From: a bacterium
GTDB lineage: Bacteria; SZUA-182; SZUA-191; JAJRXT01
Reading direction: 5' to 3'
DNA length: 36,718 bases
Assembly: GCA_024277605.1 (NCBI GenBank)
Contig: JAJRUU010000063.1
Span: 1-36,718 of the forward strand
Part shown: positions 4,496-33,577 of the stretch, piece after piece
Position numbering within the stretch: the first letter of the stretch is position 1
How the letters are laid out: the number at the start of each line of letters is the position of its first letter
The notes under the pieces: model-generated
Database searches by the model: none
What the model saw: only the letters and a program-made list of their open reading frames with translations
Told to the model about the DNA's origin: nothing
Translations under genes and position numbers: made by a program

Positions 4496-5815
4496 CTAGT
4501 CCTCTTTTAATCTTACTCTAACTGCGGCTGCATGGGCAGACAATCCCTCCATGCGGGCCAGCTCCACCGCCAGTTTTCCATGCTGCATAAGCGCCTGCCG
4601 ACTGTAGTGTATCACAGAAGAGCGTTTTATGAAATCATATACCCCTAAAGGCGAGCTGAAGCGGGCGCAGCCACTGGTCGGCAGCACATGATTAGGCCCG
4701 GCGATATAGTCTCCCAGGGCGGTGGGGCTGTAATGGCCCAGAAAAATCGCTCCGGCATGGTTTATACCGTCCAGCCAGGCATCGGGCTCATCTACCATGA
4801 GTTGTAGATGCTCGGGGGCAACCTGATTGGCTAATTCTATAGCCTGCTCAGTATCAGGCACGATGATTATGGCGCCATTCTTTTCCAAAGACTGTTTAGC
4901 TTGAATGCGAGCCGGATGGCCTTCATTCCACAGTGTATCACACTGCCGGTCAAGCTTCAGGATAACCCCTTCGGCCAATTTCCTGGAAGTGGTTACCAGG
5001 ATTGGTTGCGCTTGTGCATCGTGCTCAGCCTGGGCCAGAATATCCGCCGCCACCCATACAGGATTTGCGCTCTCATCGGCAATAATCAGCACCTCGCTGG
5101 GTCCGGCAAACATGTCGATTCCTACAGAATCAGAAACCAGACGCTTAGCGGTAGCTACATATATATTGCCCGGCCCCACAATTTTATCCACCCTGGGGAT
5201 GCTTTTTGTACCATAGGCCATAGCTGCTATGGCCTGAGCCCCGCCCAGTTTGTAAACTCGAGTTACTCCGGCAATCCGGGCTGCGGCCAGCACATAAGGA
5301 TTTATAGTTCCGGATCTATCGGGAGGTGAGCAAATCGCTATATTTTTCACTTTGGCTATCAGCGCCGGAATAGCGTTCATCAGCACTGATGAAGGGTATA
5401 CCGCCTTGCCTCCGGGAACATACAAGCCCACACTTTCCAGGGGACGCACCAGCTGTCCTAAGCGTATCCCCGGTTCATCCTCTTTGTACCAGGTTTTCTC
5501 AAGCTGCGCTTTTTGCTCCTCATGAAAAGCTCGTATACGGCGGGCAGCCTGCTGCAAGGCCTCTTTGCCTGAGGCTGAAACTCCGGCAATGGCTTCATCC
5601 ATCTCGGCTTGACTTACCAGCAGCTCTTCAGGGGTAAGCGTAGCCCCGTCAAACTTATGCTCATACTCTATAAGCGCCGTATCACCAGCTGACTTTACCC
5701 GGTTTATTATGTCGATAACCGTATTCTCTATAGTGCCTGTAGCCTGGGTGCGTTCCTGCCGCAAGCTGGCAAAATCAGCAGCAAAATCAGCCGCCGCATA
5801 ATCCAATAACCTCAT
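4496..5815 (-). CDS. hisD: Histidinol dehydrogenase
   Basis: 439-aa ORF that is HisD-like over its full length ('YEHKFDG', '[22 protein letters not shown]', 'AQAEHD', 'APEHLQL'). Its ATG overlaps the murA stop codon (ATGA). Confidence 0.95.
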
Positions 5816-7065
5816 GCTAACCTTTCTATATCAGCCCCCAGGGCGGCCAGTTTTTGCTCGATTTGTTCATACCCCCGGTCTAAGTGATAGATGCGGGAAA
5901 TCAACGTCTCTCCGTGAGCCGCTAATCCAGCCAGTACCAGTGAAGCGCTGGCCCTGAGATCGGTGGCCATTACCGGCGCCCCCTTCAACACCGGTACTCC
6001 GGTAACCAGGGCGGTATGCCCCTCTATCTTGATATTTGCCCCCAGCCGTATCAACTCTGACACATGCATAAAACGGTTTTCAAATATGGTTTCGCTTATC
6101 ATGCAGCTGCCCCGGGCCAGGGTCATCAGCGCCATAAACTGCGCCTGCATATCGGTCGGGAAACCGGGGTAGGTGGCGGTCTTTATATCCACCGCCTGCA
6201 ACGTCCCATGCGCATGGACCTTCAGCGAATCAGCTTTTTCCTCTACTTCTATGCCGGCTTCAATTAATTTGGCGGTTACCGTACTTAGATGCTCGGGGTG
6301 GCAATTGTCAATCTCAACCTCTCCGCCGGTGATGGCTGCGGCAATCATAAATGTGCCGGTTTCTACCCGGTCCGGGATAATTCGATGGGTAAAGCCTGAA
6401 AGGCTGGATACGCCCTGTATGTGGATACAATCCGTACCAGCGCCAGCTATCTTTGCCCCCATTTTGGTAAGCGCCGCGGCTAAATCAACTATTTCAGGCT
6501 CACAGGCCGCATTTTCAATTATGCTTTCACCTTGGGCCAAACAGGCGGCCATCATCAGATTTTCAGTGCCGGTTACCGTGGAAATATCAAGCCATATATG
6601 AGCGCCCTTAAGCCGTGATGCCCGGGCATTAATATATCCCTGGTCTAAATCGATGTGAGCGCCTAATTGTTGCAAGCCCTTGAGATGCAGATTCAGCGGC
6701 CTGGCCCCAATAGCACAGCCGCCGGGCAGCGACACCCTTGCCCTTCCCCGGCGGGCCAGAAGCGGCCCCAGTACCAGACAGGAAGCCCGCATGGTGCGTA
6801 CCAGTTCATAAGGGGCCTCATGCCCTGTGGCCTGAGTGTTATCCACGCTGACCTGGTGTGGGTCGATCTCGCTGGTTTTGCCGCCCAGATCTGAAATCAG
6901 GCGCAGGATGGTGGATACGTCACGCAACTGGGGAACATTCTGGATCCGGCATTCGCCTTCGGCTAGTAATGTAGCTGCCAGGATGGGGAGGGCGGCGTTT
7001 TTTGCTCCGCTAATGCTTACTTTGCCCTTAAGCCTTTTGCCGCCGCGGATTAAGATTTCATCCAA
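5812..7065 (-). CDS. murA: UDP-N-acetylglucosamine 1-carboxyvinyltransferase
   Basis: 417-aa ORF. '[45 protein letters not shown]' and '[19 protein letters not shown]' are classic MurA motifs, including the active-site Cys. Confidence 0.95.
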
Positions 7066-9294: not shown

Positions 9295-9606
9295 ATGAGT
9301 AACCACAATACAACCATCCAACTCCATAAAGATACTGCGTTAAGGTTAATACACAGAAATCTAAAAAATGGAAAATTTGTCCTTAGAGAACACTTCAAAG
9401 ACAGGCTAAACGAAAGAAACCTATACACTCAGGACGCTATTTATGTGTTAGAAAATGGCATCATAATTGCGGAACCAAGGTTTGATGATAAATTGAAAAA
9501 CCATAGTTACAAGGTTGAAGGATATACTGTTGACGATGAGTGGCTGGCTGTGGTTGTAGCGTTAGACGATGATAAGATTATTTTCATAACTACTTTTGAT
9601 GACTAA
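9295..9606 (+). CDS. DUF4258-like small protein, putative toxin of a TAC module
   Basis: 103-aa ORF. 'LREHFKDRLNERNLYTQDAIYVLENGIII...YKVEGYTVDDEWLAVVVALDDDKIIFITTF' fits the DUF4258 pattern (H...R..eR.i....i..vl..G.i.......g..l.vVv......i.viTv). It ends 14 nt upstream of the antitoxin-like gene. Confidence 0.7.
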   Translation: MSNHNTTIQLHKDTALRLIHRNLKNGKFVLREHFKDRLNERNLYTQDAIYVLENGIIIAEPRFDDKLKNHSYKVEGYTVDDEWLAVVVALDDDKIIFITTFDD

Positions 9607-9620
9607 CAGGAGGTGTTTTT

Positions 9621-10205
9621 GTGAACTGTCCAACATGTGGTGGCAACATGACAGAGACAAAAAGGGATTATAAGTATACTGAATCAGGGTTAGATAACAT
9701 CACATTAGAAAACCTTACCATGCTCGTCTGTGGGTGTGGGGAAGAAATGCCGGTAATTTCCAACATTTTAGACGTGCATAGGGACATCGCCCTGGAAATA
9801 ATCAAGAAGAACGCTCCGTTAACTGGCCCGGAAATCAGGTTTCTAAGGAAAGAAATGAGGATTAATGGAACGGTTTTTGGCGAGATGCTGGGAGTTCGCA
9901 ACGTTACAGTTTCCAGGTGGGAAACAGGTGAGGTATCAATTGGCTCAGTAAGTGACAAGCTAATACGTTACCTTTTTGTTAATAAAATGGGAAGCAAAGA
10001 AAATAAATTAATACAAATTGATATTCCTGAGGGAAACCTGCAAGCATCACAAGAAATCCAAGTTATGATTGCCGTGGATGACCTAATGACAACACAAGAT
10101 ATTGAAACGACAGCTTTTGCGTATAGTGCAGGATGTGAGGGTTTTTATCGTTATCGATTTCAACCAGCGGATGCTACTTTAGATGAGTTGCCATATGCCG
10201 CCTAA
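9621..10205 (+). CDS. MqsA/YgiT-type zinc-ribbon + HTH antitoxin with long C-terminal extension
   Basis: 194-aa ORF with a GTG start after an AGGAGG SD. It has an N-terminal 'CPTCGG...CGCGEE' zinc ribbon and an Xre-type HTH 'LTGPEIRFLRKEMRINGTVFGEMLGVRNVTVSRWETGE'. About 75 extra residues follow the HTH, ending 'GFYRYRFQPADATLDELPYAA'. Confidence 0.8.
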   Translation: MNCPTCGGNMTETKRDYKYTESGLDNITLENLTMLVCGCGEEMPVISNILDVHRDIALEIIKKNAPLTGPEIRFLRKEMRINGTVFGEMLGVRNVTVSRWETGEVSIGSVSDKLIRYLFVNKMGSKENKLIQIDIPEGNLQASQEIQVMIAVDDLMTTQDIETTAFAYSAGCEGFYRYRFQPADATLDELPYAA

Positions 10206-10620
10206 AAAAGATCAATTTAAAATGACCTTTGACGGTATTAGAGTTTTAAATATCAATTTTTCTACAGACCAGGATTTTGGCGAAAAGGGTTTTTTTGATA
10301 TTAATGCCCAAATATCATTAAAACATAAATACATTGAGGAGCAAAAAAAGTTATTGATAAATCTACAAGTTGCCCTTCCGAAAGGGGAAGCCCCTTTTTC
10401 ATTTCATGTGGAAAGTGTAGGCACGTTTACCTTTCAAGAAAATCCAGAAAAAACCACCATTGAAAGGATTGCAAGAATAAATTGCCCCGCAATTATGTTC
10501 CCTTATTCAAGAGAACTTATTGCTGACCTTACCCGCAGAGCAGGCTTTCCTCCTCTTCATATTCCACCTATCAACTTTATTGCCCTATCAGCGCAGTCAG
10601 ATAAGCCCGAAAACAAATGA
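10183..10620 (+). CDS. SecB-like chaperone (TAC chaperone candidate)
   Basis: 145-aa ORF. 'MTFDGIRVLNINFS' and 'INCPAIMFPYSRELIADLTRRAGFPPLHIPPINFIAL' align by eye with E. coli SecB 'MTFQIQRIYTKDISF' and '[36 protein letters not shown]'. The start is uncertain: in-frame ATGs lie at 10183, 10195 and 10222, and the first two overlap the antitoxin stop at 10203-10205. Confidence 0.8.
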   Translation: MSCHMPPKKDQFKMTFDGIRVLNINFSTDQDFGEKGFFDINAQISLKHKYIEEQKKLLINLQVALPKGEAPFSFHVESVGTFTFQENPEKTTIERIARINCPAIMFPYSRELIADLTRRAGFPPLHIPPINFIALSAQSDKPENK

Positions 10621-10679: not shown

Positions 10680-12260
10680 TTATTGGCTCAGATTATTCAT
10701 AAAGCAATAGGGGTCTTTTTCGGTAAAAATATCTTGTCTGAAGCTATGAGCGATTGCCATACACCCGCCGCAGACATGCCGAATGACACAACCCCGGCAA
10801 GCATTACAGCCGGTGCGGTATTTGTTGGCGGCGGCTGAATCATAAACTTCCGCTATTTTCTGGCTGATTACATTTCCGATAGGTGAGGGGAATTTGCGGC
10901 AGGCATGGGCTTTGCCATCGGGGAGTATAGCGATAAAGTTAAAGGCTGCCCCGCAGCCATAGCCGGTGCAGCCGCTGAGCAGGGGTTCATTCATCTGGTG
11001 GCGCAGGATATTAAACAGATTATCCTTGTAATACAATAGGGGGTTTTGCCTGGCGGCCTTGGTGTAGGCGGCTAAAAACGCCGTATAAGCTGCTTTATCA
11101 GGTAATTCAAGCCCAGCCCCTTCACCCACCTGTGACAGGCGGTTAAAGGTGAATGAATCAGCCACCCCTTGTAACTCATCAGCCAGCGGCAGCACTTGAT
11201 CTATATTGTCTTTGGTTAAGGTCAGCATAACCGAGGCAAAAATCCCCAGCTCTTTTAAGAGCGGCAGAAAGTTCATCACCCGCTCATAATGCCCCGCACC
11301 GCGTATCTCATCATTATGTTCGCCTAATCCCTCCAGACTCACTTGAAAAAACCGGGGGTTCTGAATCGATAATAATGCTTCAAGCTGTTTTCGGGGGGTC
11401 GGGTTTCCCAGAATCGACAGGGAAAAACCATAATCTGCGGCGGCCCGGTACAGCTCGCTGAATCGGGGATAGAGGAAGGGGTTGCCGCCGGTAAAGGTTA
11501 CCTGCCCCCGCACAGAGCGTGTTTTACAGAAATCATAGAGGTCGTCAAGCACTTTAAGCGCAGCATCGAATTGCAGCGGTGATGGTTGGCTGCGGTCATA
11601 GCAGTGCTTGCACGCAAGGTCACAGGCGTTGGTGATATGCCACTGGATAGCAAAGACGGGGGCGGCCAGAAATTTATCAGCGGGTGGCTTTTCGGCTTTA
11701 TATGTTCTGGGATCACGACGAATACGAGTTGCTGGAGAAAGTAAAATACCTTTTTGAAGCGCCTGATAAACGGCCTTATCAATAACCCCGACGGGAACCT
11801 GATTTGCCCGGGCAGCGTCTTTAACATCAATGCCTTCGGCCACCAGCTTTATTGCCAGCAGGTCATCCTGGGTAGCTTGCTTATGCTGAACCTCATCTTG
11901 CGGATTGCGCCAGATGAGCACCCATTCTTCCCCCGCTTGAGGCTTGGCGGGGGATGAGTCAGCTTTCAGTTTAAGCGCAGATGACAGTTTCCATGATAAG
12001 TGCAGTAGCTCAAGGCTTGGATTCAGCATAAGCTGCTGCACATTTTCGGGGACGGCGATAATTCTTGATTTGACCCGCCAACAGGCTCTTTCCAAGCGGG
12101 CCAGATCGGGCAGATAAGCCGGAAGCTTCTCAGTATGAAGCTTTTGTGCCAGGCGCTCAGGTAATAAAAGTGCATCTTCACAGGAGGCGGCCAGCTTCTG
12201 CCAGGCACATTCACCCATATGCTTGATACACAGTGGATAAACATCGCTAAACAAGTTCAA
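10680..12260 (-). CDS. Radical SAM / SPASM-domain peptide-modifying enzyme with about 200-aa N-terminal extra domain
   Basis: 526-aa ORF with a TTG start at 12258-12260 (the next in-frame ATG is at codon 15). It has a CxxxCxxC cluster 'NACDLACKHCY' and the Cys-rich C-terminus 'SGCTGYGCGAA...GKAHACRKF...GCNACRGCVIRHVCGGCMA...DPYCF' typical of SPASM auxiliary clusters. The N-terminal domain contains 'LPAYLPDLARLERACW', which reminds me of the DUF2063 family. Confidence 0.85.
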   Translation of the reverse strand: MNLFSDVYPLCIKHMGECAWQKLAASCEDALLLPERLAQKLHTEKLPAYLPDLARLERACWRVKSRIIAVPENVQQLMLNPSLELLHLSWKLSSALKLKADSSPAKPQAGEEWVLIWRNPQDEVQHKQATQDDLLAIKLVAEGIDVKDAARANQVPVGVIDKAVYQALQKGILLSPATRIRRDPRTYKAEKPPADKFLAAPVFAIQWHITNACDLACKHCYDRSQPSPLQFDAALKVLDDLYDFCKTRSVRGQVTFTGGNPFLYPRFSELYRAAADYGFSLSILGNPTPRKQLEALLSIQNPRFFQVSLEGLGEHNDEIRGAGHYERVMNFLPLLKELGIFASVMLTLTKDNIDQVLPLADELQGVADSFTFNRLSQVGEGAGLELPDKAAYTAFLAAYTKAARQNPLLYYKDNLFNILRHQMNEPLLSGCTGYGCGAAFNFIAILPDGKAHACRKFPSPIGNVISQKIAEVYDSAAANKYRTGCNACRGCVIRHVCGGCMAIAHSFRQDIFTEKDPYCFMNNLSQ

Positions 12261-12274
12261 GGCACCCTATAGCA

Positions 12275-12523
12275 TTAGCCGCAGGAGGTTTCCCCACTAC
12301 ATGAAGTTCCACTCGCTTTTCCTGAACAAGCGGTCTTTCCCGTTTCTTCTGAGCCAGCGGTTTTTTCCGTTTTTCCTGAGCCAGCGGTTTCCCCCTGTTC
12401 AGTCTTAACTTCCTTTTTGCCTTCGCAGCTTGTGGCACAGCCAACAAGCGCTATTCCACTTGTGGCAATCAGACTCGCCAGACTAATGCGGGCTAACGTT
12501 TTCTTCAGTTCTTTAGGATCCAT
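12275..12523 (-). CDS. 82-aa Cys/Gly/Ser/Thr-rich peptide with lipoprotein-type signal; candidate substrate of the adjacent rSAM/SPASM enzyme
   Basis: The sequence is MDPKELKKTLARISLASLIATSGIALVGC|ATSCEGKKEVKTEQGETAGSGKTEKTAGSEETGKTACSGKASGTSCSGETSCG, followed by TAA. It has a lipobox-like LVGC, a low-complexity repetitive spacer, and four further Cys in (S/A)C(E/S)G contexts. Its stop lies 14 nt before the rSAM start. Confidence 0.7.
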   Translation of the reverse strand: MDPKELKKTLARISLASLIATSGIALVGCATSCEGKKEVKTEQGETAGSGKTEKTAGSEETGKTACSGKASGTSCSGETSCG

Positions 12524-12657
12524 CAGGCGCTCCTCTTAAAAAGGGTTAAACGCATCTGTTAAGGTTGCTTTTGAGTGCATATAGATGATGGAAATTGATG
12601 TGCATTGCCGACACAGCTACACTATACTAAAACGGTAGCATTGGTGTCAAATATTTT

Positions 12658-12786: not shown

Positions 12787-13251
12787 ATGCGGGATAGGTT
12801 ATGGGGCGTTTTATTATTGGGTGTTGCGGCGGCGGTTTTTGCCAGTGGCTGTGCTACCGGGCAGACCGGGGTGATCTGGGGTTCGGTAATAGATAATAAT
12901 AATAGGGCCATAAGTGGGGCGATGGTAACTACCGATCCTCCCAGTTCGTCAGTATCGACCGATAATCTGGGGCGCTACATATTAAGGTTGGAGAAGGCGG
13001 GCACCTATTCGGTAACCGCCATGATGTTGGGCTATGTGTCTGAACCGACACTGGTGCAGACCCAGAAGGGAGATGTGACCCAGGCGGATCTTAAGCTGTT
13101 GCCGGAAGGGATGGCGCCGGTCTCCAGGATAGTTGTTCCAATGCTGAAGGAGGACCCCCCTGCGGCGGCGGCTGTTACTACTACGACTACAGAAGAATCA
13201 CCGGAAGTGACTACTAAACCGCCTAAGAAAAAGAAATGGTGGGAAAAATAG
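12787..13251 (+). CDS. Lipoprotein with carboxypeptidase-regulatory-like (CarboxypepD_reg) beta-sandwich domain
   Basis: 154-aa ORF with a GGGAGG SD. The signal 'LLLGVAAAVFASGC' carries a lipobox. 'GSVIDNNNRAISGAMVTTDP...TDNLGRYILRLEKAGTYSVTAMMLGY' fits the CarboxypepD_reg pattern. The tail is Thr/Pro/Lys-rich. Confidence 0.7.
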   Translation: MRDRLWGVLLLGVAAAVFASGCATGQTGVIWGSVIDNNNRAISGAMVTTDPPSSSVSTDNLGRYILRLEKAGTYSVTAMMLGYVSEPTLVQTQKGDVTQADLKLLPEGMAPVSRIVVPMLKEDPPAAAAVTTTTTEESPEVTTKPPKKKKWWEK

Positions 13252-26781: not shown

Positions 26782-28542
26782 ATGGCAGTGAGACAGGCGC
26801 CCGCTCCTCCAGATACCGGTGATTCATTAGTCAGGCTACTTATAAACAAGAAACTGCTCTCTAATGTTCAGCTGGAGTTGGCCCAGGAAATCCAAAAACG
26901 ACGGGATGAAAACCTTAAAGATATCCTTGTTCGGATGGGTTGGGTTTCTGAAGAAGATATAATAAAACTGCAGGGAGAGCTGTGGAAAATACCTGTTTTT
27001 AATCCCGATCACCTAAAAAAGATAGATCCCGCCTTACTCAGCCAGATCCCCGAATATTTAAGTCGTAAGCACAATATATTACCCATTAATAAGGAGAATG
27101 GCAAGGTATGGGTGGCCATGAGCGATCCATTCGATCTGGTGGTGCTTGATGACCTGCAGCGGGTAACCAAGGCCGAAGTAAAACCGCTTATAATTTCCGA
27201 AGCAGATGTCAAGAAATATATTGATCAATGTTATAAAAAGAAAACCGGTAAAGCGGCGGAAGATAAGCAAGAAGAGCATCTAAGAGACCAGATCATAGAT
27301 GAGATGAGCGAGTTCGAACTGGATATTGACGGAGCTAACGCGGGGGAAGAAGAAGAGCAGTTAAAAGTCAGTACCAGTGATCCCCCGGTGGTAAGGCTGG
27401 TGAATTTTATGCTGGTGCAGGCCATTAATGATAAGGCATCTGATATTCATGTAGAGCCCATAGAAGATGGAATAAAGGTGCGCTATCGGGTTGATGGCTC
27501 CTTGTTTGAGCTGGTTAATTCACCCAAGAAATTTAAAGCGGCCATCATTTCCCGGATAAAGATCCTTTCCGGTATGGATATATCGGTAAAACGCGTTCCG
27601 CAGGATGGGGCGTTCACTATCCATCAGGATGGAGCGGAGGTGGATTTTCGGGTTTCGTCTCTCCCGATTATATATGGAGAAAAGATTGTGCTCCGGTTAT
27701 TGGTACGAAATGCGGTTACCGGAAACACCTTAGAGGGTTTGGATATGGGGGAGCGCAATCTGAATGTATTTAAGAAGATGATTTATCGGCCACACGGAAT
27801 GATTCTGGTTACCGGCCCTACCGGATCGGGTAAATCCACCACACTTTATACGGTATTAAATGCCATAAATGATCCTTGTAAGAATATTATTACAGTAGAA
27901 GATCCTTGCGAGTATCGGTTGGCTGGGATTCAGCAGGTGCAGGTTAAGCCGGATCTGGGTTTTGATTTTGCGGATGCGCTACGGACTATTTTACGGCAGG
28001 ATCCTGATATTGTTATGATTGGTTAAATCCGGGATAGCGTGACCGCCCATATTGCGGTCAAGGCTTCTTTAACCGGACATTTGGTGCTTTCCACGCTGCA
28101 TACCAACGATGCTCCGGGAGCTATTGTGAGGTTGGTGGATATCGGCTTAGAGCCCTTCCTGGTGGCCTCTTCGGTGACTATGGCAGTGGCCCAGCGCTTG
28201 GTGAAAAGAATTTGTAGTCATTGCAAGGAAAAATATCAAGCTTCTCTAGACGAGAAGGAGATTATAGGTTGGGACCCCAAAAAGGAACTGATCTTGCACC
28301 GAGGTAAAGGGTGTAAGGACTGTCGGAATACAGGCTATGCCGGTAGAGCGGCTGTGTTTGAGGTCTTGGAGATGTCGCCTGAGATCAAATGTTTAATGTT
28401 GGAAGGGGGATCCATGGATGCCGTCCGTGAAAAAGCTATTGAGCAGGGGATGGAAACTTTGCGGGATTGCGGCTTTCGCCGGATGCATGCGGGTATTACC
28501 ACCCTGGAATCAGTCTTGGCGGTTTGCGTCGGAGAGGATTAA
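26782..28542 (+). pseudogene. pilB: PilB/MshE-type pilus extension ATPase interrupted by one in-frame TAA (28024-28026)
   Basis: It has a GspE_N domain, then Walker A 'GPTGSGKST', then 'LRQDPDIVMIG' TAA '[29 protein letters not shown]'. A tetracysteine 'CSHC...CKDC' follows. Both track ORFs (26782-28026 and 28039-28542) are in the same frame. The stop sits where homologues have the Glu of GEIRD. Confidence 0.9.
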
Positions 28543-29825: not shown

Positions 29826-31022
29826 ATGATATTAGACGAAGAGCAAGAACAAATTGCTGAACCAAAGCCAAGGGATATTGCTGGGGACAAGCGAGCAGAT
29901 AAGGGGGTGGAAAGTTTAAGCATTAGGCAATTAGTGGAGCGGATGGTGGCTGAGAGGGCATCGGATATCCACATCAATGCCGGTAGTCCGCCTATATATA
30001 GAATAGACGGAAATCTGGTGGATTTGGGTTATCCCAGGCTTACTCCCGAAAAATGTAAGCAACTGATATTTAGCGTGCTAAAAGAAAAACAAATTGCCAT
30101 GTTTGACGAGGTGAACGAGATAGATTTTTCTTTTGGTATTCCCGGCGTGGGGCGGCTTCGGGCTAATGCCTATATCCAACGTGGAACCTTTGGTCTAGCC
30201 TTAAGAAATATCCCGTATCGTATCCCGATGGTTGAAGAATTGGGATTGCCCAAGGTGGTAATCTCGCTTTGCCAGAAGCAAAGAGGATTGGTCTTGATTA
30301 CCGGCCCTACGGGTTACGGTAAGTCTACCAGCCTGGCGGCTATGCTTGGGTATATAAACAAGAAATATGCAAAACATATTATTACCGTTGAAGACCCTAT
30401 AGAATATTTACACCGCAATGAGAAATCGATGGTTACCCAGCGTGAAATAGGCGTAGACACCAAAACCTTTAATAGCGCTTTGCGCACAATTTTAAGGCAG
30501 GATCCGGATGTGGTGCTCATCGGTGAGATGCGCGATCTGTAAACTATTCAGGCTGCGCTGACTATTGCGGAGACGGGCCATTTGACCTTTGCTACATTGC
30601 ATACCAATTCAGCGGTAGAAACCATAAACCGGATTATTGACGCCTTTGACAGTGGCAGACAATCTCAGATAAGAACGCAGCTGTCATTCGTGTTGGAGGG
30701 GATAATCGCTCAGCAGTTGATCCCTCGCTGTAATACAGCCGGTCGTGTATTGTCGGCCGAAATTCTGGTGCCTAATATGGCTATCAGGAATTTGATTCGT
30801 GAAGGAAAAATCCACCAGATCTATAGTATTATGCAAACTTCTCAGGCGGCCACTATTATGCAAACCATGAACCGCTCGCTCCTGTCTTTATATAAGAACG
30901 GAGAAATAAGTTATGAGGAGTTGATGTATCGCACCACCGATCGAACGGAACTTATGGAAATGCTGAAAACCCAAAAACAAGTTGTGACATCGACCAAAAG
31001 AGCATTATTTGGCAAAAAATGA
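29826..31022 (+). pseudogene. pilT: PilT-type retraction ATPase interrupted by one in-frame TAA (30540-30542)
   Basis: 'ASDIHINAGSPPIYRIDG' is followed by Walker A 'GPTGYGKST', then '[16 protein letters not shown]' TAA '[24 protein letters not shown]', then 'AIRNLIREGK'. Both track ORFs (29826-30542 and 30582-31022) share one frame. The stop sits where homologues have the Glu of RDLET. Confidence 0.9.
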
Positions 31023-32380: not shown

Positions 32381-33577
32381 GTGATAACTGAAGAGAAGGT
32401 ATTATATCAAGCTTTATTGGAAAGTAAGTTGCTTTCTGAGGAGCAATTGCAAAAGCTTACATCTGATGTTGAGGCAAAAGGTGAAGGCATCGGGCAACAT
32501 TTGCAGCAGTTAGGCTATATGGAGGAGAAGCGCTATATTTCCTTTTTGATTAAGGAATGTGGGTATCATTTCTTGAGCCTGAATCAAGTTGAGATAGATC
32601 CGGATGCCATAAAGCAAATACCCTCAGAAGTAGCCCGACGTTTGCAAGTAATTCCCCTTCGGAAAGCCAGGGATACGCTGGCAGTGGCCATGTGCGATCC
32701 CTTCAACAAGCAAGTGTTGGCCGAGCTTGGGAAGGTGACGGCTTATACTATCTTACCGATTGTTAGCCGGCACGAGGAGATAATACAGTTTCTCAAACGT
32801 TATGATGAGTTGTGTGCCAGTAGAAGCAAGTCTCAGGTTTCTGGAATATTGAGTTATGAAGGGCTTCCCTTGGTGAGGAGATTCGTTTTTGATAGCTTTG
32901 TGGTGGGCAAGGGGAACGAATTTCCCTATGCGATGGCGTCCGCCGTAGCCAAATCACCAGGTGAAAGCTATAATCCATTGTTTTTGTACAGCGATGTTGG
33001 ATTAGGTAAAACCCATCTGCTCAATGCTATTGGTAATCAAATGAAAAATCAAAGTCCCCCAGTAAAAATGATGTATGTCACCTGCGAGTATTTTAACTCT
33101 CAGGTGGTGGGGGCCATAAAGGATAATATTATCGACCTTTTCCGTTCAACCTTTAAAACACTTGATATTTTACTTATTGATGACATTGAATTTCTAAAAG
33201 ATCGCGACAAGACACAGGAGGAGTTTTTCCATTTGTTTAACAGTATGGTTCAAGCCGGCAAACAGGTAGTAGTTACCAGCGATCGCTCTCCCAGCGAGCT
33301 TTCGGTATTGGAAAAACGCTTGCGCTCAAGATTTATGGGAGGAACCGTAGCAAATATCGATCCACCAGACCTGGAAACCAGGACGGCTATATTGCACAAA
33401 AAGAATACTGAGACGGCGGTACCAACTGAGGTGTATCATCTTTTAGCCAGCAGGATTCAAGAGAGTGTGAGGGAATTGGAGGGGGCCTTAAATACCCTGC
33501 TTTCCTTAAATAGGTTTACTGGGGAAGATATCAACATTGATAATGCTGAAAAGGTTCTACATGAGATGGGCTATTAA
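32381..33577 (+). CDS. Chimeric protein: GspE_N (T2SSE_N/MshEN-like) domain fused to a DnaA-type AAA+ domain III, no DnaA domain IV
   Basis: 398-aa ORF with a GTG start after an AAGGAG SD. Residues 1 to about 140, 'LLSEEQLQKL...GQHLQQLGYMEEKRYISFLIKECGYHFLSLNQVEIDPDAIKQIPSEVARRLQVIPLRKARDTLAVAMCDPFNKQVLAELGKVTAYTILPIV', form a T2SSE_N pattern. The rest is DnaA-like: 'FDSFVVGKGNEF', 'NPLFLYSDVGLGKTHLLNAIG', 'LLIDDIEFL', 'VVVTSDRSPSEL', 'RLRSRFMGGTVANIDPPDLETRTAILHKK' and 'VRELEGALNTLL'. The ORF ends before any DNA-binding HTH. Confidence 0.85.
   Translation: MITEEKVLYQALLESKLLSEEQLQKLTSDVEAKGEGIGQHLQQLGYMEEKRYISFLIKECGYHFLSLNQVEIDPDAIKQIPSEVARRLQVIPLRKARDTLAVAMCDPFNKQVLAELGKVTAYTILPIVSRHEEIIQFLKRYDELCASRSKSQVSGILSYEGLPLVRRFVFDSFVVGKGNEFPYAMASAVAKSPGESYNPLFLYSDVGLGKTHLLNAIGNQMKNQSPPVKMMYVTCEYFNSQVVGAIKDNIIDLFRSTFKTLDILLIDDIEFLKDRDKTQEEFFHLFNSMVQAGKQVVVTSDRSPSELSVLEKRLRSRFMGGTVANIDPPDLETRTAILHKKNTETAVPTEVYHLLASRIQESVRELEGALNTLLSLNRFTGEDINIDNAEKVLHEMGY

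Follow-up and report, generated by a model that had tools for sequence, protein, structure and literature searches.

Peptides of the SbtA family are known as RiPP precursors (RiPPs being peptides made on the ribosome and modified after translation) of a particular design, with a conserved signal-like N-terminus, a low-complexity spacer, and Cys or selenocysteine residues near the C-terminus in small-residue contexts, and they are encoded in a two-gene layout with SbtM, an enzyme built from a ∼200-aa N-terminal domain, a radical S-adenosylmethionine (SAM) core and a SPASM domain. The system was named 'selenobiotic' for a concept based on UGA codons, selenocysteine and the selenocysteine insertion sequence (SECIS), but this is not a defining trait of the thio(seleno)oxazole family as it is now constituted. 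In a characterized SbtM (WP_083768621) both the Cys and the selenocysteine substrates lose four hydrogens, and nuclear magnetic resonance of the Cys product identified a thiooxazole (Lewis et al., Biochemistry 2021, as reported in PMC11002830); later work classed modified SbtMa with the 5-thiooxazole products of the MNIO enzymes by their shared absorbance maximum at ∼305 nm. Here we describe a locus on the minus strand of a 36,718-nucleotide stretch of bacterial DNA (contig JAJRUU010000063.1, assembly GCA_024277605.1), the whole of which we refer to as the window, and which almost certainly contains a self-contained two-gene sbtA-sbtM cassette of this family in its Cys form. Its architecture, gene layout and precursor design are those of the described system, and the peptide differs in detail only, with four candidate Cys sites and a TAA stop in place of UGA and selenocysteine, and three 27-nt repeats in the spacer.

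The bufferins and captophorins (BufABC, HvfABC, FonABC, NgoABC) carry the same product heterocycle, a 5-thiooxazole formed from Cys with a change of −4 Da, and their precursors likewise have Sec or lipoprotein signals and Cys repeated in motifs of small residues (EGKCG in theirs, TSCSG in the window). Their catalyst, however, is an O2-dependent multi-iron TIM-barrel enzyme of the MNIO (DUF692) type, whereas SbtM is an unrelated, O2-independent radical SAM/SPASM enzyme. NGO1945 is NgoC, the 'PME1' partner of an MNIO that installs 5-thiooxazoles in gonophorin, and PME1 genes are reported to adjoin MNIO genes almost universally (10.1101/2025.11.18.689057). The structure of NgoC (3DEE) shares its fold with the predicted N-terminal domain of SbtM, but PME1 is a separate protein, whereas the module in the window is fused to the radical SAM enzyme; no MNIO gene is present in the window, and the DoxX, sigma and anti-sigma neighbors of those systems are absent at this locus.

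Two further groups are relevant. As at the window locus, the DAG-RiPPs DybA and NedA combine a canonical lipobox with a cytoplasmic modifying enzyme that has no signal peptide and with the lack of a dedicated exporter, and NedA contains repeated Cys motifs that each lose 4 Da (PMC13056109); every demonstrated DAG-RiPP is MNIO-modified, non-MNIO examples being the subject of speculation that they 'may exist' (PMC13056109), and the lipidation of SbtA is a prediction. The radical SAM/SPASM maturases that possess an RRE (RiPP recognition element), such as SkfB, CteB, SuiB, AlbA and PqqE, have the catalytic fold, the twin auxiliary clusters and an N-terminal peptide-recognition module in common with SbtM. 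Theirs is a plain RRE of ∼90–100 aa, in contrast to the two-part module of ∼200 aa predicted in SbtM with its extra DUF2063-like helical bundle, and they form C–S or C–C crosslinks rather than heterocycles.

Family membership is given by two curated NCBIfam hidden Markov models (HMMs). The enzyme matches TIGR04082, the equivalog 'thio(seleno)oxazole modification radical SAM maturase SbtM', with 715.7 bits against a cut-off of 350 (E 3.4e-215), residues 7–520 aligning with positions 1–516 of the 516-position profile, so that the N-terminal 200 residues are spanned too. The runner-up, rSAM_ACGX, reaches 151.8 bits where its cut-off is 400, and it covers the catalytic part only. The peptide matches TIGR04081, 'SbtA family thio(seleno)oxazole RiPP natural product precursor', with 34.0 bits against 30.5 (E 1.8e-08; residues 1–26 on positions 1–26 of 27); this model describes the N-terminal region alone (residues 1–26) and no core, and while the margin is narrow, the gene context supports the assignment. 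The original prediction, made from the DNA letters before any database search, had proposed that a precursor peptide is paired with a maturase of the radical SAM/SPASM type and noted a likeness to SbtA/SbtM; both models bear out the pairing, and the likeness turns out to be membership. It overrated the novelty of the locus, as the family is already described and annotated and is recognized by standard pipelines. From the sequence of the pair, thiooxazole chemistry at this locus is probable, and we consider it probable to the same degree that family identity and chemistry both hold. The features of the locus are as follows.

12621–12650, minus strand: candidate sigma-70-like promoter of the sbtAM operon, TTGACA-18-TATAGT, called from 11/12 consensus matches only.
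12530–12535, minus strand: Shine-Dalgarno sequence GAGGAG, 6 nt 5′ of the sbtA ATG, by direct reading.
12275–12523, minus strand: sbtA, open reading frame (ORF) of 82 aa, SbtA-family thio(seleno)oxazole RiPP precursor of the Cys type, with an ATG start and TAA at 12275–12277.
12437–12523, minus strand: SbtA leader/signal region, residues 1–29, with a K-rich n-region, a hydrophobic h-region and the lipobox L-V-G-C29.
12278–12436, minus strand: SbtA core region, residues 30–82, G/S/T/E/K-rich, with four candidate sites in T[S/A]C[S/E/G]G contexts.
12425–12427, minus strand: candidate modification site C33, T[S/A]C[S/E/G]G context.
12326–12328, minus strand: candidate modification site C66, same context.
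12302–12304, minus strand: candidate modification site C74, same context.
12284–12286, minus strand: candidate modification site C80, same context.
12314–12400, minus strand: three tandem repeats of 27-nt period in the core spacer, 76% identity to the reference copy.
10680–12260, minus strand: sbtM, radical SAM/SPASM maturase of 526 aa, TTG start.
11661–12260, minus strand: SbtM N-terminal domain, aa 1–200, DUF2063/PME1-like fold with an RRE-type half, in a predicted model.
10986–11660, minus strand: radical SAM core, aa 201–425 (PF04055, E 1.4e-15).
10683–10985, minus strand: SPASM domain, aa 426–526 (PF13186, E 9.4e-07), with eight invariant Cys for two auxiliary [4Fe-4S] clusters.

The precursor reads MDPKELKKTLARISLASLIATSGIALVGC and, continuing, ATSCEGKKEVKTEQGETAGSGKTEKTAGSEETGKTACSGKASGTSCSGETSCG. 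Its N-terminus fits the lipobox rule, with a Lys within the first seven residues, an uncharged stretch and L-V-G-C ending at Cys29; the rule applied here is a regular expression of the PROSITE PS51257 type. The Cys contexts in the core are TSCEG, TACSG, TSCSG and TSCG, and the 27-nt repeats encode 9-aa units (ETAGSGKT, EKTAGSEET and GKTACSGKA), two of which have Gly at the position where the third has Cys. The sigma-70-like candidate lies ∼100 nt upstream of the sbtA ATG, and exactly 14 nt separate the sbtA TAA from the first sbtM TTG (12260). The lipobox-type signal, the DNA repeats and the C-terminal Cys contexts of the peptide had all been picked out in the original prediction and are present, on the minus strand; the 14-nt spacing, the 526-aa enzyme, its CxxxCxxC site and its SPASM cysteines are likewise confirmed, in the sequence and by Pfam. 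Reading of the sequence finds no in-frame UGA in the window sbtA, which closes …TSCG-TAA, and tRNA and Rfam scans found no selenocysteine tRNA (tRNA-Sec), SECIS or any other RNA family in the window. When a large protein database was searched with the peptide only the query was returned, the word-based seeding of such searches failing on low-complexity sequence. That database's precomputed Pfam label for the peptide is PF27804.1, an entry absent from our local copy of Pfam; apparently, a newer Pfam release already models SbtA-like peptides.

The sbtM product has the radical SAM motif C213-x3-C217-x2-C220 (nt 11601–11624) and the SPASM cysteines C431, C436-x12-G449-x4-C454, C488-x2-C491-x5-C497-x2-C500 and C519; none of these cysteines varies among 44 homologues. 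A start at the TTG at 12254 instead would yield a 524-aa protein, which is the product entered in the protein database. More than 3000 SbtM relatives are found there, many of them annotated as SbtM or as 'selenobiotic family peptide radical SAM maturase', and the highest identity of the window enzyme to any database sequence is 76%. An AlphaFold model of the full-length enzyme, computed without templates, has a pLDDT of 88.7, and the RiPP maturases SkfB, CteB and SuiB match it best in structure over its full length. A terminator scan gave no convincing terminator 3′ of sbtM.

We have compared the locus with its relatives by a genome scan. Of the 33 loci that it gave, 29 encode clear SbtM relatives, and they come from Desulfobacterota, Chlorobi, Omnitrophota, Planctomycetota, Leptospiraceae, one gammaproteobacterial metagenome-assembled genome (MAG) and unclassified MAGs. 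Upstream peptides were sought with a small profile of our own, built on the SbtA N-terminus and run against six-frame translations in which TGA was read as U. In 21 of the 29 loci sbtM is directly preceded by an SbtA-like ORF, and several others have too little upstream sequence to judge. Seventeen of these 21 are of the Cys type and four of the selenocysteine type (L004, L009, L019, L024), so that Cys in place of selenocysteine is common. The original prediction regarded this substitution, together with the lipoprotein leader and the extra N-terminal domain, as unusual; all are standard in the family, TIGR04082 itself covering the N-terminal domain.

The closest relatives (L001–L003) have SbtM enzymes 58–76% identical to that of the window. 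The TSC(S)G motif recurs in the nearest SbtA homologues (L001–L003, L005 and L006), which end in …TSCG in L001 and L002 and in …TSCS in L003; Chlorobi relatives carry GSC(S)G, and the selenocysteine types have [S/A/G]U[S/G] at equivalent positions. With the window's own peptide there are 22 SbtA sequences, and all have Cys or selenocysteine in small-residue contexts of a low-complexity C-terminal region. The lipobox pattern is satisfied in 19 of the 22, as [L/S/A/M]-x-[G/S]-C at position 26–29 behind a basic n-region and an uncharged h-region; L004 falls just short of it (PGC), and Cys is absent from that position in L024 and L027. The N-terminal 26 residues are conserved between phyla about as well as SbtM is, which is more than a signal peptide alone would normally show. 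When the ORFs within 6 kb were clustered all against all in 30 loci, no protease, transporter, metal-related or other gene proved to be conserved with sbtAM, apart from synteny within the Chlorobi lineage; as no third gene is conserved, we regard the system as a two-gene cassette without a dedicated protease or exporter.

Two of the peptides recovered in this comparison are distinctive. In Desulfococcaceae bacterium HSG9 (L024, JAUCGF010000134.1, positions 5178–5828) the SbtA-like ORF upstream of sbtM is ∼216 codons long and contains 11 in-frame UGA codons in repeated SGUGG units, without a lipobox Cys; it would be exceptionally rich in selenocysteine if every UGA is read as such. The peptide upstream of sbtM in L027 has KKCAGMK motifs, again with no lipobox Cys.

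The N-terminal domain is the less familiar feature of what is otherwise an ordinary Cys-type SbtA/SbtM member. Residues 1–200 of SbtM, which include LPAYLPDLARLERACW at residues 46–61, were modeled alone with AlphaFold without templates (pLDDT 88.5), giving a helical bundle (2–65), a linker, three strands (84–128) and three helices (131–170). A Foldseek comparison of this model with the PDB has as its top match 3DEE, that is, NGO1945 (E 1.6e-8, TM-score 0.62/0.62 over 198 columns), followed by the TglHI chains 8hci_A and 8hi7_A (E 6e-6 and 2e-5), of which the matched chain is TglI, as we infer from its length and architecture (PMC10880893). The fourth match is at E 0.08, a drop of more than three orders of magnitude from the 3DEE/TglHI group. 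The modeled topology agrees with the published descriptions of NGO1945, in which a helical domain is followed by a ∼20-residue loop, a three-stranded sheet and then helices (PMC2954202), and of TglI, in which an N-terminal helix domain is joined by a linker to a C-terminal RRE domain with three strands (PMC10880893). The original prediction had likened this part of the enzyme, from the motif at residues 46–61, to DUF2063-type domains, and it is on the side of structure that the proposal stands. In Pfam the matches stay below threshold: NGO1945_C (PF22106) falls on residues 99–143 of the window enzyme at E 0.003–0.01, DUF2063 (PF09836) on the first ∼45 residues of a few homologues at E 0.013–0.09, and weak matches to the two models occur in just 4/22 and 2/22 of the SbtM family members, although the two sub-threshold matches are collinear along the domain. 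A profile of the domain run against PDB sequences missed 3DEE and gave only insignificant winged helix-turn-helix matches (a transcriptional regulator, and sigma-D at E 0.4). Sequence alone does not establish the DUF2063 link.

In its predicted fold the domain is PME1-like, but it is not a PME1 member; we use the qualified term as it fails both the Pfam thresholds and the partnership with an MNIO, being a module fused to a radical SAM enzyme. We tentatively suggest, as a possibility that we hold to be rather less probable than its negation, that the domain is a true evolutionary relative of the PME1 (DUF2063 plus RRE) proteins, whose published description is that of partners reserved for MNIO enzymes. 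One recruitment module would then have been joined to two unrelated oxidative catalysts that form the same 5-thiooxazole on precursors with a signal and Cys repeats: aerobes would use the MNIO, which depends on O2, and anaerobes the radical SAM/SPASM enzyme, which does not. The literature that we searched contains no paper linking DUF2063 to radical SAM/SPASM enzymes, though a mention in the primary SbtM paper is possible. Among the relatives, the SbtM enzymes of L025–L028 (Chlorobiaceae/Chlorobaculum MAGs) align with the window enzyme only from about residue 90 onward, so that the DUF2063-like helical half is missing or divergent in these, and they may represent a variant subfamily.

These features can be combined into a proposed pathway. 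The PME1-like domain would dock the precursor, probably through the unusually conserved N-terminal 26 residues of SbtA, and the radical SAM/SPASM domain would then oxidize C33, C66, C74 and C80 to 5-thiooxazoles in the cytoplasm, with an expected mass change of −4 Da per site and up to −16 Da in all. The N-terminus of SbtA would afterwards work as a type II signal peptide, the peptide being exported by Sec, modified with diacylglyceryl at Cys29 and cleaved by signal peptidase II. The end product would be a lipid-anchored tail of ∼54 residues, acidic and basic and rich in Gly, Ser and Thr, with up to four thiol-bearing heterocycles, and by analogy with the bufferins and captophorins it might be a binder of soft metal ions, for example Cu(I), at the cell envelope. 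The oxygen independence of such an enzyme route would suit an anaerobe. The pairing of a signal-bearing precursor with a cytoplasmic maturase, which the original prediction thought unusual, has precedent in MNIO systems, where modification before Sec or lipoprotein export is documented experimentally for the bufferins and for the DAG-RiPPs DybA and NedA (PMC11626156, PMC13056109). Export and lipidation of SbtA, judged from its N-terminal pattern, are only slightly favored over the alternative, and metal binding, the weakest step of the proposal, is a doubtful extension of the analogy.

Several points weigh against this interpretation. The chemistry is borrowed from a characterized relative, the window pair being known from its genes. 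The DUF2063 link of the N-terminal domain depends on a predicted structure, and the Pfam matches to it reach 13.6–18.5 bits, with best scores of 18.5 for NGO1945_C and 16 for DUF2063, against gathering thresholds of ∼27. That the leader would double as a signal is a reading of its conservation and goes only as far as that conservation suggests. With L024 and L027 lacking the lipobox Cys, lipidation would not be family-wide, and no metal-homeostasis genes were found in the neighborhood of sbtAM in the window.

The alternatives differ in which part of the proposal they would replace. The original prediction had suggested looking for thioether or other crosslinks, and SbtM could be a maturase of the sactipeptide or ranthipeptide type that makes intramolecular thioethers from Cys, given that the nearest solved structures to the full-length model (SkfB, CteB and SuiB) are thioether-forming or related maturases and that there is weak HMM similarity to PapB, StsB and AlbA. 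These scores are, however, far under the respective cut-offs (PapB 76.5 against 340, StsB 63.5 against 625, AlbA 45.9 against 850, and likewise SkfB 44.9 against 300), to be compared with the 715.7 bits against 350 of the SbtM equivalog. Apart from Gly, Ser, Thr, Glu and Lys, the core of SbtA has hardly any side chains of acceptor type, its Cys-Cys spacing is not conserved, and the characterized SbtM relative yields −4 H per Cys and a thiooxazole (PMC11002830). We therefore consider thioether formation very improbable and expect instead the conversion of Cys to 5-thiooxazole with −4 Da per site. A more radical view would take the small ORF either for the gene of an ordinary lipoprotein with no tie to SbtM or for a spurious frame, and would give SbtM a different substrate. 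It could appeal to the low complexity of the core and to the database search that returned the peptide itself only, but a search of that kind depends on exact word matches and cannot see such sequences. In 21 of 29 loci, from many phyla, sbtM directly follows an ORF built on the same motif logic, four of these ORFs having selenocysteine in place of Cys; the window peptide scores above the TIGR04081 cut-off, has a strong Shine-Dalgarno sequence and ends 14 nt from sbtM. The conserved sbtA-sbtM pairing effectively refutes this view, to which we attach next to no probability.

The fate of the modified peptide is less settled. It could be modified by SbtM and yet stay in the cell, the N-terminal 29 residues being a leader for the SbtM N-terminal domain only and the lipobox-like motif being incidental or itself a modification site. 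The N-terminus is far better conserved across phyla than ordinary signal peptides are and is the sole part that the SbtA HMM models, which would fit a leader, as would the two peptides in which the lipobox Cys is missing; that no gene for a dedicated transporter or protease lies nearby is compatible with either reading. The full lipoprotein signal pattern in 19 of 22 sequences argues for export, and peptides that rely on the general Sec/Lgt/Lsp machinery, as the bufferins and DAG-RiPPs do, are expected to have no exporter or protease of their own. Retention in the cytoplasm seems unlikely on balance, and we retain export after modification as the preferred reading.

The genes that flank the cassette in the window are unrelated to it, with a DUF4258/MqsA/SecB-like module on one side and a divergent small lipoprotein gene followed by cobA-hemD on the other. 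The module (9295–10620, plus strand) is convergent with sbtM and encodes a DUF4258 protein (103 aa), an MqsA-family antitoxin (194 aa, with a ∼75-aa C-terminal extension) and a SecB-like chaperone (145 aa) whose gene overlaps that of the antitoxin by 23 nt; the module resembles a toxin-antitoxin-chaperone (TAC) system. The divergent ORF (12787–13251, plus strand) encodes 154 aa with a lipobox-like N-terminus (…FASGCATGQ), a carboxypeptidase-regulatory-like domain and a Thr/Pro/Lys-rich tail, and it is not conserved beside sbtAM in the other loci. For MurA, the named relatives that match best share ∼62–65% identity and belong to Nitrospirota, Thermodesulfovibrionales and Desulfuromonadia.

Farther along the window are genes for type IV pili, two of which are interrupted. 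A PilB/GspE-type ATPase gene (26782–28542, plus strand) has an in-frame TAA at 28024–28026, at the Glu of the conserved GE(I/M)RD, so that GAA has become TAA and the translation reads MIG*IRD, with the frame intact for 171 further codons. A PilT-family ATPase gene (29826–31022, plus strand) has a single in-frame TAA at 30540–30542, where relatives have Glu (GEMRDL*TI, LET being expected). No other internal stop in the window has long open frames on both sides within a single gene. That paralogous pilus ATPases both show a change from GAA to TAA could reflect pseudogenization, an assembly or sequencing error, or something stranger. The two stops raise the question as to whether the TAA that closes sbtA is a true stop. 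A reassigned TAA at that point is rejected, as the L002 orthologue stops at the same …TSCG position with TAG-TAG and the L003 orthologue stops with TAG. Within the pilus gene cluster there is also a 398-aa ORF (32381–33577, plus strand) in which a MshEN/PilB-N-like domain (8–150) is joined to a DnaA/Hda-type AAA+ module (160–395), the DnaA DNA-binding domain being absent.

As a single locus the cassette is of minor importance, since the family is recognized by standard pipelines and one member has been biochemically characterized. The residual interest lies in the fused PME1-like domain and in the prediction of lipoprotein RiPPs made by a radical SAM enzyme, points which the primary SbtM paper may already make. 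A Cys-type cassette with tight translational coupling is convenient for heterologous work because no selenocysteine machinery is needed, and the near-universal lipobox of SbtA makes this an obvious family in which to look for lipoprotein-pathway RiPPs outside the MNIO systems, a question raised by the DAG-RiPP paper (PMC13056109). The structural link between the SbtM N-terminal domain and the MNIO partner suggests that two convergent routes to the thiooxazole, one aerobic and one anaerobic, draw on a common recognition module. If this is true, captophorins would have their anaerobic counterparts in the SbtA products, and these would be the first RiPPs to be both made by a radical SAM enzyme and anchored by the lipoprotein pathway, with seleno-variants possibly tuned for binding soft metals.

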